From the sequence record MZ234013.1: a stretch of 64,000 bases of DNA. One strand, written 5' to 3'. Positions 1,752 through 30,734 of the stretch are shown piece after piece. Within the stretch, counting starts at the first letter, position 1. Each line of letters starts with the position of its first letter. A model generated the notes under the pieces. The model searched no databases. It saw only the letters and a program-made list of their open reading frames with translations, and was not told where the DNA came from. Both the position numbers and the translations under genes were made by a program. This stretch comes from Escherichia phage vB_EcoM-101112UKE3-1.

Positions 1752-2045
1752 ATGAAAAAATTTATCTTTGCTACAATTTTTGCTTTAGCTTCTTGTGCTG
1801 CTCAGCCTGCTATGGCAGGTTATGATAAAGATTTATGTGAATGGTCTATGACTGCAGATCAGACTGAAGTTGAAACTCAAATTGAAGCGGATATTATGAA
1901 TATCGTTGAGCGTGATCGTCCTGAAATGAAAGCTGAAGTACAAAAACAGCTTAAATCAGGTGGTGTGATGCAGTATAACTATGTTTTGTATTGCGATAAA
2001 AACTTTAATAACAAAAATATCGTAACCGAAATCACAGGTGAATAA
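1752..2045 (+). CDS. sp: Spackle periplasmic protein (lysis from without / superinfection related), 97 aa
   Basis: N-terminal signal peptide MKKFIFATIFALASCAAQPAMA; size and position match T4 sp. Confidence 0.8.
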   Translation: MKKFIFATIFALASCAAQPAMAGYDKDLCEWSMTADQTEVETQIEADIMNIVERDRPEMKAEVQKQLKSGGVMQYNYVLYCDKNFNNKNIVTEITGE

Positions 2046-2046
2046 T

Positions 2047-2685
2047 ATGATTTATTACATGCACAAAAACGCGCCGTTTAAATATGGTAAATTTCCTAAT
2101 GCGCAATGTTATAATATAACGCCGAATGAAAATAATAATGGATACCATATCGGTGTAATTTTTGTAATTGTTAAAGATAACGAAATCGTTGCCTGGGCAG
2201 ATTTTAAAGGTACAACACATGATGTTAATCCGGTGCCTTTCACATATTACAATATAATGGATTTGGCATATGATTATAATTGGTTTAATCATGACACGTT
2301 GGCTCATATTCATATTGAAGGTGTAGGATTTGACATCTCTTATTCTAGCTACTCATTGTGTCCTATGAGTCGGGCTCATAAAGAACCTGAATATTTTTCA
2401 TTTAGGAAACGTGTAAACTTTAAACGCAGCACAGAGTATGTCGGTGGAATATTTGTTAAAGATAATCGAATTATTCGTATTAATTATCCTTTGGGCTGTG
2501 GTCAAAAAGATATTGATGTTGATTTAGATTTCACTGAAAATAATATTAATCATATTGCTTCTGTGTATTTTGGTATCGATCACAAAATTGTAATATGTGG
2601 ATATGAATTACCGTTTGAAGAACAGCCTAAAGTAAAAGTTTCTATTGACGATCAAATTTTTAATGCTTTTATGAATAGAGGTTAA
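2047..2685 (+). CDS. hypothetical protein (T4 61.2 position)
   Basis: ORF; ATG at 2047 overlaps sp stop; track ORF starts at upstream GTG. Confidence 0.55.
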   Translation: MIYYMHKNAPFKYGKFPNAQCYNITPNENNNGYHIGVIFVIVKDNEIVAWADFKGTTHDVNPVPFTYYNIMDLAYDYNWFNHDTLAHIHIEGVGFDISYSSYSLCPMSRAHKEPEYFSFRKRVNFKRSTEYVGGIFVKDNRIIRINYPLGCGQKDIDVDLDFTENNINHIASVYFGIDHKIVICGYELPFEEQPKVKVSIDDQIFNAFMNRG

Positions 2686-2686
2686 T

Positions 2687-2851
2687 ATGAAAACATATAA
2701 AGAATTTATTAAAGAAGATATGGTTGCTGGAGATTCAGGTGGTAATCCTGAAAATATCTCTACTGGAACAACATCAGGTGCTGTAGTAAATAAAGGTCCT
2801 GAACAGATTCCTAAAAAGAAAAAAGAGGAATCTAAAGAAAAAGAAGAGTAA
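2687..2851 (+). CDS. small acidic/lysine-rich protein (T4 61.1 position), 54 aa
   Basis: ATG overlapping previous stop (TAATATG), 55 codons, ends 3 nt before gene 61 start. Confidence 0.45.
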   Translation: MKTYKEFIKEDMVAGDSGGNPENISTGTTSGAVVNKGPEQIPKKKKEESKEKEE

Positions 2852-2854
2852 AGA

Positions 2855-3883
2855 ATGTCATCAATAGCTTGGATTGATAATGAGTTTGCATATCGTGCAT
2901 TAGCTCATTTACCTAAATTCACACAAGTAAATAATAGTTCAACTTTTAAATTACGGTTTAGATGCCCAGTTTGTGGAGATTCAAAAACCGACCAAAATAA
3001 AGCGCGTGGATGGTATTATGGTGATAATAATGAAGGAAATATTCATTGTTATAACTGTAACTATCATGCGCCAATCGGAATATATTTAAAGGAGTTTGAA
3101 CCTGATTTATATCGTGAGTATATCTTTGAAATAAGAAAAGAAAAAGGTAAAAGTCGTCCAGTAGAAAAACCTAAAGAACTTCCTAAACATCCTGAGAAGA
3201 AAATAATTAAATCTCTTCCGTCATGTGTTAGATTAGATAAACTGGCGGAAGACCATCCAATTATAAAATATGTAAAAGCTCGTTGTATTCCAAAGGATAA
3301 ATGGAAATATCTTTGGTTTACAACCGAATGGCCTAAATTAGTTAATAGCATAGCACCGGGAACATACAAAAAGGAAATTTCTGAGCCTCGTCTTGTTATT
3401 CCAATTTATAATGCTAATGGAAAAGCTGAGTCTTTTCAAGGACGTGCATTAAAGAAAGATGCTCCTCAAAAATATATCACCATCAAAGCTTATCCTGAGG
3501 CAACAAAAATATATGGAGTCGAACGAGTTAAAGATGGTGATGTATATGTTCTAGAAGGACCTATAGATTCACTTTTTATTGAAAATGGTATAGCTATTAC
3601 GGGTGGTCAATTAGACCTAGAAGTTGTTCCATTTAAAGATAGACGAGTGTGGGTTTTAGATAATGAGCCTCGTCACCCTGACACTATCAAGCGAATGACT
3701 AAATTAGTTGATGCAGGAGAAAGGGTTATGTTTTGGGATAAATCTCCCTGGAAATCAAAAGATGTTAATGATATGATTAGAAAGGAAGGTGCAACCCCTG
3801 AACAAATTATGGAATATATGAAAAATAATATTGCCCAGGGGTTAATGGCTAAAATGCGGTTATCTAAATATGCCAAGATTTAA
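2855..3883 (+). CDS. 61: DNA primase gp61, 342 aa
   Basis: N-terminal zinc ribbon CPVCGDS...CYNC; sequence matches T4 gp61; length 342 aa. Confidence 0.9.
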   Translation: MSSIAWIDNEFAYRALAHLPKFTQVNNSSTFKLRFRCPVCGDSKTDQNKARGWYYGDNNEGNIHCYNCNYHAPIGIYLKEFEPDLYREYIFEIRKEKGKSRPVEKPKELPKHPEKKIIKSLPSCVRLDKLAEDHPIIKYVKARCIPKDKWKYLWFTTEWPKLVNSIAPGTYKKEISEPRLVIPIYNANGKAESFQGRALKKDAPQKYITIKAYPEATKIYGVERVKDGDVYVLEGPIDSLFIENGIAITGGQLDLEVVPFKDRRVWVLDNEPRHPDTIKRMTKLVDAGERVMFWDKSPWKSKDVNDMIRKEGATPEQIMEYMKNNIAQGLMAKMRLSKYAKI

Positions 3884-4080
3884 ATTAACCCAACTAAAGC
3901 AAATGCTAGATCTACGAATGTATCAAGAGTAACTACTGGAATATTAACACCATGCGCAATTGCAATTGGTGATAAAATAAAGTTCCAGAGTAAAATTCCT
4001 ACCATAGCAGAAATAGTAAAAGCTATACGTTTTTTATTACCTTTTATGGCATTAACAAGTGCCATTAATTTTTGTGCCAT
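3880..4080 (-). CDS. small hydrophobic (membrane) protein, 66 aa, convergent with gene 61
   Basis: Minus-strand ORF with strong SD (AAGGAGGA then 3 nt then ATG); hydrophobic stretches; stop codon overlaps gene 61 stop (TTAA). Confidence 0.55.
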   Translation of the reverse strand: MAQKLMALVNAIKGNKKRIAFTISAMVGILLWNFILSPIAIAHGVNIPVVTLDTFVDLAFALVGLI

Positions 4081-4124
4081 ATGTCCTCCTTTAAATTAAT
4101 ATTTATCACAAATTTCATAAATTT

Positions 4125-4154
4125 GTTTACTTTCTCAGCTTGTTATGGTATTAT
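4125..4154 (+). promoter_or_regulatory. T4-type early promoter upstream of the 186-aa ORF/dam operon
   Basis: GTTTAC then 18 nt then TATTAT. Confidence 0.55.
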
Positions 4155-4179
4155 AAAATAAATTGCTGAGGATGATATA

Positions 4180-5519
<1,340 letters not shown>

Positions 5520-16429: not shown

Positions 16430-16801
16430 ATGTTTAAAATCGGTAAGAAATATCGCATTCGCGAAGGTGAAGAAAAGAAATATCTATTTTCTGCTATTTA
16501 TAGGAATGGTTCTATTAATGCTGTAATATCTACAAGCGAATTTATCGTTGAAGATATGAAAGGTAATAACGTTACAATGATTAGTACAGCATCTGGAAAT
16601 GACGGAAAAATTCTTCACAGTTTTCAGAGTAATGTTCTAATATATGATGAAGAATTTGACTTCTTCGAAGAAGTTCCCGAAGATTTTGATTTTGAATGCG
16701 CTATTACTATGAAGTCTGGTGACCCTCTTTCTTTTACAGTTAAAGATGAAAGAAGTCGCTTGAGAGTTATTAGTCTTCTTCAAGTCATTAAATTTAAGTG
16801 A
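16430..16801 (+). CDS. hypothetical protein, 123 aa
   Basis: ORF. Confidence 0.5.
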   Translation: MFKIGKKYRIREGEEKKYLFSAIYRNGSINAVISTSEFIVEDMKGNNVTMISTASGNDGKILHSFQSNVLIYDEEFDFFEEVPEDFDFECAITMKSGDPLSFTVKDERSRLRVISLLQVIKFK

Positions 16802-30077: not shown

Positions 30078-30734
30078 TTATTTAGCCCTTCCTAATATTC
30101 TGGCCGCCTGAGAACATATTGATTCAAGGCGGTCATTACTTATATGATCATTTCTATACCAGTACATGGTTATTGTTCCAGCATAGATATTATCCAAATT
30201 GAAATATGGACAACTGTACATGTAATTTATTTCGGGAGTAGGCTTTTTGGTTGGTAAAAAAGCAAATTTTGAGTCGGAATAATAATGACGTCCATTTAAA
30301 TGAACTGTATATTCATCCATAGTTTTATCAACAGGATATCCTCCAAGTGATTTTTCACTTATTGTTGAAGGTAATTTTCCTTCATATGCTATAATATCAA
30401 CAAAGTAGTTTAAGTTTTTAGGGCGGAAAGAATACACCGCACTAAAGTCTGCCTCAGATGATATATGAACTATCTGGAGTTGTTCCAGGGCGACAGATTC
30501 AAAGCGTGCATTTCTTTCCTTTTCAATAATTTCACTGTATGTTTCATACTTTGATTGCTTATAGTACTCAAAGAAACTATCTCCCCTATACCAAACAATC
30601 GCCATTATAAACAAAAGAATTACGACAGCCACTCGGGAAGCAAGAACCTTCCCGGTAGCGTTATCTTTGAACAAGCGATCTAGAACACCAAATAGAATAT
30701 CAGAGGGCGAAAATGATATTCTAGGTGCTGCCAT
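30078..30734 (-). CDS. t: holin T, 218 aa
   Basis: 218 aa; N-terminal TM segment; sequence matches T4 holin. Confidence 0.9.
   Translation of the reverse strand: MAAPRISFSPSDILFGVLDRLFKDNATGKVLASRVAVVILLFIMAIVWYRGDSFFEYYKQSKYETYSEIIEKERNARFESVALEQLQIVHISSEADFSAVYSFRPKNLNYFVDIIAYEGKLPSTISEKSLGGYPVDKTMDEYTVHLNGRHYYSDSKFAFLPTKKPTPEINYMYSCPYFNLDNIYAGTITMYWYRNDHISNDRLESICSQAARILGRAK

Follow-up and report, generated by a model that had tools for sequence, protein, structure and literature searches.

The DNA analyzed here is a 64,000-nucleotide (nt) stretch of Escherichia phage vB_EcoM-101112UKE3-1 (sequence record MZ234013.1), referred to below as the window, which belongs to a Tequatrovirus (T4-like) and is reversed relative to the standard T4 map. 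Its locus of interest is a small gene for a 66-amino-acid (aa) protein that adjoins the DNA primase gene 61 in the local order 41, dmd, 61.4, sp, 61.2, 61.1, 61, 66-aa gene, 186-aa open reading frame (ORF), dam, 56, soc. Positions 3400..4800 are 100% identical to vB_EcoM-fFiEco06 and several further phages. A first, sequence-only reading had noticed a hydrophobic ORF running antisense in this region, which it considered unusual, with a near-ideal Shine-Dalgarno sequence 3 nt from the start codon and a stop codon overlapping that of gene 61. All of these features are present (Table 1): the product is strongly hydrophobic (grand average of hydropathy, GRAVY, 1.21), the ribosome-binding site reads AAGGAGGA, both convergent stop codons fall within one TTAA, and in the 100%-identical record NC_054914.1 the small gene is the sole opposite-strand coding sequence (CDS) among the 40 in the first 21.4 kb. 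Because the stops overlap, there is no space for a terminator between the small gene and gene 61. At its other end, the small gene is divergent from the 186-aa ORF, which starts at 4180 (+), across a 99-bp spacer.

The length of the ORF is not significant by itself. Antisense ORFs longer than 60 aa are numerous in the window, and the case for a gene therefore rests on comparative evidence. The sequence-only reading had made the gene depend on conservation of its frame in relatives, and about 800 phage records from at least 10 Tevenvirinae genera indeed carry an uninterrupted frame. Synteny, which the same reading had proposed to compare, is constant as well: gene 61 is convergent with the small gene in every lineage examined, including metagenomic loci. 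The 4-nt TTAA overlap of the stops is kept in T4, T2, RB69, ST0, LF82-16, VR25, Marfa, JS98, Entb_45, and PEi20, the exceptions being PM2 with a 21-nt overlap and the lineages L023 and L025 with a 14-nt overlap and a 9-nt gap, respectively.

The pattern of substitutions points to a protein. Nei-Gojobori estimates from 17 distinct coding sequences gave within-clade ratios of nonsynonymous to synonymous substitution (dN/dS) of typically 0.1-0.35. Between genera, the proportion of synonymous differences (pS) was 0.52-0.81, indicating saturated synonymous sites, and that of nonsynonymous differences (pN) was 0.30-0.39. In a binomial comparison, the synonymous excess had P values of 8e-5 to 4e-3 in five within-clade pairs and was weaker in two Gaprivervirus pairs (P = 0.02-0.06); individual values include T4 versus L015 (P = 6e-4), ST0 versus L019 (P = 8e-5), and L018 versus L019 (P = 3e-4). 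No plus-strand ORF of at least 40 aa in the window ORF list overlaps 3880..4080, and this constraint is therefore not borrowed from the other strand. By these comparisons, the small gene is real and its protein is under purifying selection.

The small gene is preceded by a box resembling T4 late promoters. As the sequence-only reading had stated, GATAAATA is one mismatch from the late consensus TATAAATA, matching 7 of 8 positions and differing at -13. The distance between box and ATG is 19 nt. T4 late promoters carry such a box about 10 bp upstream of the transcription start and need no -35 element. The box GATAAATA occurs as a single copy in the window and is directly followed by TTAATTTAAA, in which 10 of 10 positions are A or T; an A+T-rich segment just downstream of the box is a criterion for T4 late promoters (PMC2988020). 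In that compilation, 32 of 50 listed sites are perfect and nine carry A at -13; most of the remaining variant sites show other single deviations, -13 is the commonest deviating position, and late transcripts occur in either polarity (PMC2988020). The late genes soc, t, and 36 of the window begin with the same arrangement of box, ribosome-binding site, and start codon. The earlier statement that the same box variant stands before holin t has to be corrected, because holin t has AATAAATA, which differs from the consensus at the same position by a different base.

The box recurs across the family. Of 12 representative lineages, 11 have NATAAATA at a distance of 13-22 nt from the start codon, on its upstream side, and the flanks around it are otherwise unalignable between lineages. 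This 7-mer has a frequency of 1.9e-4 per position in the loci compared, so that chance alone would give about 0.4% per lineage. Lineages differ at the first base of the box: the T4 group and PM2 carry G, Mosigvirus, JS98, L012, and L023 carry A, and Gaprivervirus and PEi20 carry C, whereas the perfect TATAAATA stands upstream of the small gene in Marfa and Entb_45. (A)GGAGG stands at the site equivalent to the Shine-Dalgarno sequence in all 12 representative lineages. Copies of the late core ATAAATA number only 12 on the two strands of the window, about one third of the 37 +/- 6 expected. Late timing of the small gene is thus strongly indicated by its promoter sequence, and the start of transcription given in Table 1 presumes the usual geometry of T4 late promoters. 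As a side observation, TATAAATA occurs in 6 copies in the window against 9.4 expected; the scarcity of both motifs is consistent with selection against stray late promoters, and the core copies at 16495 (-), 42551 (+), 59293 (+), and 63018 (-) have no obvious gene start behind them.

To what extent the family reaches beyond these lineages was apparent from several searches. The protein matches phrog_2024 in hmmscan (E = 1.6e-31; residues 3-66 against profile positions 2-65 of 65), a family whose function is annotated as unknown. A tblastn search returned 692 phage records of a form that we term subtype A, 686 of which align with 80% or more of the query. Tequatroviruses at 89-100% identity make up about 500 of the 692 records; another 190 fall below 60%, where the sampled records were Mosigvirus and Gaprivervirus (44-56%). 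In the sampled subtype A records, the gene lies under or beside the primase annotation. A second tblastn search yielded 122 records of a subtype B with the pattern MGT.FYQIWKL..KKDKKL.MGFLALDVFLWNLLVVPIAATQGV.LPQVT.EH..., which is carried, among others, by Dhakavirus (JS98, JS10, Bp7), Klebsiella phages (Marfa, Potts1), Enterobacter phages, and Pectobacterium PM2, and Kanagawavirus carries a third form. A profile search gave 105 clusters, all from T4-like phages or metagenomes, and a scan of IMG/VR yielded 10 loci. In phmmer against 1.84 billion representatives, the only matches beyond family members were repeat-protein artefacts such as P0032, and no positional equivalent was found at the primase 3' end in the records of Krischvirus KFS-EC, Slopekvirus KP15, Biquartavirus 44RR2.8t.2, and Acinetobacter PhT2. 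The small gene looks like a Tevenvirinae trait, and it is ancestral to the subfamily, not a recent acquisition.

One lineage carries two copies. In Gaprivervirus VR25 (L006), a subtype A gene at 2495..2692 is followed by a subtype B paralogue at 2701..2901, and the two are 25% identical. Because only the first, subtype A copy has a late box, the tandem pair is probably a two-gene late operon. TH40 and TH54 have either no second copy or only a partial match to it.

The predicted protein has three parts, a basic amphipathic N-terminus, a transmembrane helix, and a loop with a short C-terminal helix (Table 1). One robust hydrophobic helix is present in all subtypes, with Kyte-Doolittle means over 19 residues of 1.8-2.3 across subtypes and 1.8-2.0 for codons 19-42. 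The lysine-rich N-terminus is also common to all subtypes, and acidic residues are absent from it in subtype A. The C-terminal segment is hydrophobic in subtype A and weakly hydrophobic in subtype B. AlphaFold2, run on an alignment of 24 sequences, predicted helices at residues 2-12, 16-42, and 52-62, with a mean predicted local distance difference test score (pLDDT) of 79.5. In the same alignment, in which identity falls to 18%, M1, W32, N33, P38, and G44 are invariant and P48, V50, and G64 nearly so. Conservation is highest toward the end of the helix predicted to face the periplasm and within the loop. By the positive-inside rule, the N-terminus would be cytoplasmic. We favor a single-pass inner-membrane protein with the N-terminus inside, the C-terminus outside, and an interfacial periplasmic C-terminal helix, because the 11-residue C-terminal helix of the model is too short to span the membrane. 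The invariant mid-helix Asn with its adjacent Trp, followed by Pro and Gly, would be suited to helix-helix association.

Table 1. Features of the 66-aa gene and its surroundings (positions in the window)
Feature	Position	Strand	Details
CDS of the 66-aa protein, ATG start	3880..4080 (stop included)	-	window ORF list; sequence MAQKLMALVNAIKGNKKRIAFTISAMVGILLWNFILSPIAIAHGVNIPVVTLDTFVDLAFALVGLI
Basic amphipathic N-terminus, codons 1-18	4027..4080	-	K4, K13, K16, K17, R18, no acidic residue; AlphaFold helix 2-12
Predicted transmembrane helix, codons 19-42	3955..4026	-	contains W32-N33 (3982..3987) and P38; G44 directly after
Loop H-G-V-x-x-P-x-V and short C-terminal hydrophobic helix, codons 43-66	3883..3954	-	D53, D57; AlphaFold helix 52-62
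Shine-Dalgarno sequence AAGGAGGA	4084..4091	-	read from sequence; 3-nt spacer (CAT) to ATG at 4078..4080
Putative transcription start	4092..4095	-	about 5-8 nt past the box; leader of about 12-15 nt, holding only the ribosome-binding site
T4 late-promoter-like box GATAAATA	4100..4107	-	consensus TATAAATA; variant at -13
TTAA with both convergent stops	3880..3883	.	gene 61 TAA 3881..3883; small-gene TAA is the complement of 3880..3882
Gene 61 (DNA primase), constant convergent neighbor	2855..3883	+	synteny in all lineages examined
186-aa ORF, predicted PD-(D/E)XK-type nuclease	4180..4740	+	stop overlaps dam start (dam 4740..5519)

The gene is already catalogued and is not new. It corresponds to dam.1, a hypothetical protein in the T4T record HM137666.1 (ADJ39749.1), and to RB69ORF029w in RB69 (NC_004928, NP_861719.1), and in hundreds of relatives it is labelled 'hypothetical' or 'putative membrane protein'. 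The window gene shares family and position with these entries and with phrog_2024 and shows no substantive difference from them; the T4 copy is 95% identical and those of Mosigvirus (RB69-type) about 52-56%. The entries carry the label 'hypothetical', without an assigned function, promoter, or topology. The T4 references NC_000866.4 and AF158101.6 leave the gene unannotated, although an intact copy with the same box and ribosome-binding site lies at NC_000866.4 17738..17938 (+), equivalent to L003 3239..3439, inside the annotated 309-bp dam/61 'gap'. Copies are also unannotated in T2 (LC348380), JS98 (NC_010105), and PEi20 (NC_028683), and a 1984 record of the oriA region (X01416) marks only early-strand promoters there. 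One 63-aa member is named 'Holin' in UniProt, a name that appears to be automatic; the RefSeq name of the same protein is hypothetical. A full-text literature search found no paper on dam.1 or RB69ORF029w, and two preprints on phage transposon mutagenesis do not cover the region and mention T4 in passing only. T4 is the reference organism for this phage group, yet its reference lacks a gene conserved in at least 10 genera, and the T4 studies that we checked inherited this gap. With dam.1 entered in the reference, a conserved late membrane protein would for the first time become accessible to tests; in practice this would correct an annotation and supply a clear candidate, but add no new principle.

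Based on our data, the best overall explanation is that dam.1 is a genuine late T-even gene for a small membrane protein that acts at the envelope, to which we assign a probability of roughly 0.78. The core of this explanation, namely that there is a gene and that it encodes a late membrane protein, is more secure still; it was the central claim of the sequence-only reading, and the comparative evidence strengthens it. Any specific role for the protein can be proposed only tentatively. According to this explanation, a gp55-type late promoter of its own (NATAAATA, here GATAAATA) would drive the small gene in the direction opposite to the early genes around it, the early promoter region of the 186-aa ORF/dam operon lying back-to-back with this late promoter, and a short leader would supply the strong ribosome-binding site. 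The product would be a low-abundance late inner-membrane protein with one helix at about residues 16-42 and a basic cytoplasmic N-terminus, whose polar Asn, placed in the core of the membrane, most likely pairs the helix with itself or with another membrane protein. Such a protein may serve as a small late modulator of an envelope process at the cytoplasmic membrane, such as lysis timing or inhibition, or the exclusion of late-arriving phages.

Late-acting small phage membrane proteins usually serve lysis or exclusion, and the signal for T4 lysis inhibition is among the open questions in this field. We infer lysis timing or inhibition as the leading candidate role and late exclusion as the next, and consider an enzyme or a virion part unlikely. 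A bolder proposal, which we offer with clear reservation, is that dam.1 is an unrecognized, subfamily-wide component of late envelope control, such as a partner still missing from lysis inhibition or holin timing, or a late exclusion factor, and that it makes its helix contacts through the invariant Trp-Asn...Pro...Gly residues. On this view, the absent annotation in the reference would explain why 60 years of T4 genetics and all recent T4 omics overlooked dam.1. Because the stops overlap and no minus-strand terminator-like site was found inside gene 61, late transcripts of the small gene likely read through into gene 61, and a coupled second role, late antisense silencing of the primase, may exist beside that of the dam.1 protein.

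Several observations weigh against a late envelope protein as we describe it. Scans of the 66-aa protein against Pfam, NCBIfam, and PADLOC gave no matches (PADLOC at E <= 1, for subtypes A and B), a profile search of PDB sequences returned only noise (E > 0.5), and Foldseek against viral models recovered family members only, with no informative fold match. None of these results favors any of the roles that the sequence-only reading had proposed, namely membrane effector, superinfection exclusion, lysis timing, or toxin-like peptide. The metagenomic lineage L025 has no box within 45 nt of the ATG. The first base of the box is non-consensus in most lineages, which suggests deliberately modest expression, and the in vivo strength of variant late promoters is unknown according to the T4 compilation (PMC2988020). 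In subtype A, the C-terminal segment is hydrophobic enough for a second membrane segment, and a membrane hairpin is possible there. Finally, a T4 time-course study by RNA sequencing and proteomics counted RNA reads only over NC_000866.4 features (PMC9697503), and a CRISPRi-ART screen targeted annotated CDSs alone (PMC11879866); neither could see the small gene because the T4 reference omits it.

Among the particular functions that might be claimed for dam.1, a lysis protein proper, whether a small holin, a pinholin-like protein, or an antiholin-type regulator that accumulates late in the inner membrane and makes lesions itself or tunes T holin and lysis inhibition, is possible but on balance unlikely. 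It would account for a late-promoter box before a small, strongly hydrophobic product with at least one predicted transmembrane helix, in which the polar Asn could drive oligomerization, and one family member bears the apparently automatic name 'Holin'. Promoter, ribosome-binding site, and ATG are moreover arranged almost exactly as for holin t (30078..30734, -), a late gene whose box deviates at the same position and whose ribosome-binding site is also strong and similarly spaced. However, holin T has 218 aa, compared with 66 aa and about 24 predicted periplasmic residues in the small protein, and phmmer revealed no similarity between the two, matching family members only. Like the predicted small protein, holin T resides in the inner membrane with its N-terminus inside and one transmembrane helix, but it has a large periplasmic domain. 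Pinholins and other two-helix holins, such as S21 of phage 21 and T7 gp17.5, share with dam.1 a size of 60-70 aa, high hydrophobicity, late expression, and polar residues in a helix. Proteins of this type cross the membrane with two full helices and end in a basic cytoplasmic tail, whereas the charged domain of the small protein is N-terminal, its second hydrophobic segment is modeled as an 11-residue helix, and its C-terminus (...AFALVGLI), uncharged and hydrophobic to the last residue, is the opposite of the canonical hydrophilic, highly charged holin tail. No holin family or holin hidden Markov model was matched (Pfam at E <= 0.1, NCBIfam at E <= 1), and Foldseek matches to holin-named proteins were insignificant (E > 7). 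The T4 lysis set of T, RI, RIII, E, and spanins is already complete, and classical r-mutant genetics is not known to have mapped a locus here, both of which count against this role. We rank somewhat lower a late protective or exclusion factor in the envelope, directed against secondary phages or a membrane-acting host defence in the manner of Imm and Spackle. These are likewise small envelope proteins; the small gene lies within the 41-61 cluster that includes spackle, its family is confined to Tevenvirinae, and conservation peaks at the periplasmic helix end and loop. T4_Spackle Pfam matches occur in Marfa and in metagenomic loci carrying the small gene, but this link is a correlation only. 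The sequence and fold of the small protein are unlike those of Imm or Spackle, and no PADLOC model was matched. The known exclusion genes, imm and spackle among them, are early and lie on the early strand, whereas the small gene, on the opposite strand, is preceded only by a late-type box. Type I toxins such as Hok and TisB offer another likeness, since they are also short hydrophobic membrane peptides and the mRNA of the small gene would overlap a convergent transcript. There is no homology to them, however, and dam.1 is a conserved phage late gene with a strong and exposed ribosome-binding site, at which no dedicated antisense RNA gene is evident.

The remaining alternatives dispense with the protein or tie it to its neighbor. 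That the RNA is the main product, late antisense transcripts shutting down primase gene 61 with the ORF being secondary, is improbable. The overlapping stops, the lack of a minus-strand terminator-like site inside gene 61, and the strictly conserved convergent arrangement would all suit it, and an antisense side-effect may coexist with coding. It cannot account for the coding conservation, that is, for purifying selection on the protein, an intact frame in about 800 records, a strong ribosome-binding site kept in every lineage, and residue-level invariants that persist to about 20% identity. Least probable of all is a chance frame in an A+T-rich spacer, or DNA kept as a terminator for early gene 61 transcripts. 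Long antisense ORFs are indeed common in the window, and a terminator-like hairpin with a T-run stands at 4046..4065 (+), inside the 5' part of the ORF and 160 nt past the gene 61 stop; the excess of synonymous substitutions and the conserved frame point instead to a protein. This hairpin is weak (-8.9 kcal/mol, z = -1.6) and has no conserved counterpart in Mosigvirus, Gaprivervirus, or Marfa, and the terminator idea was rejected. The sequence-only reading had also suggested that the small ORF may have been acquired as one module with the 186-aa ORF; such a module might, for instance, pair a toxin or nuclease with a membrane partner. The two are adjacent and divergent in the window and about 145 close relatives, but we give this suggestion hardly any weight, as the distribution of the genes refutes it. 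T4 keeps the small gene and has lost the 186-aa ORF save for a 3' remnant (its last codons), and RB69, ST0, LF82-16, VR25, JS98, PM2, Entb_45, PEi20, and Marfa have no 186-aa homologue beside the small gene. The 186-aa ORF is absent from Mosigvirus, Gaprivervirus, Dhakavirus, Kanagawavirus, and Marfavirus, often together with dam. The upstream neighbor varies: the window and T2 have the 186-aa ORF plus dam there, T4 has dam alone, Mosigvirus, Gaprivervirus, Dhakavirus, and PM2 have gene 56, and Marfa and Kanagawavirus have other small ORFs. The constant partner of the small gene is gene 61, and that of the 186-aa ORF, which overlaps the dam start and is hence coupled to it, is dam.

Considered together with Dam, the GATC methylase of the phage, the 186-aa ORF appears to be its restriction-endonuclease-like partner. 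D72 and E85-x-K87 are invariant in 8 homologues, and the protein matches PADLOC REase_II (E = 9e-5), together with weak matches to the Pfam families DpnII and BanI below the cut-off. Its AlphaFold model (predicted template modeling score, pTM, 0.78) matches MunI, a restriction enzyme (E = 7.6e-4, TM-score 0.60), and VC1899. T2 has a counterpart ORF, T2_032, at the same position. The spacer at 4081..4179 holds back-to-back control signals, with the late box of the small gene on the minus strand and two sigma-70-like early promoter candidates for the 186-aa ORF/dam operon on the plus strand. One is TTTACT-17-TATTAT with an upstream TG (4126..4154, +), and the other is TTCTCA-16-TAAAAT (4132..4159, +), a site labelled 'promoter' in the JB75 record. 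In Krischvirus KFS-EC (L035), the 590-bp gap between the primase gene and gene 56 contains an unannotated same-strand ORF of 187 aa with a GTG start (1944..2507, +), which by sequence resembles an HNH/AP2-type homing endonuclease.

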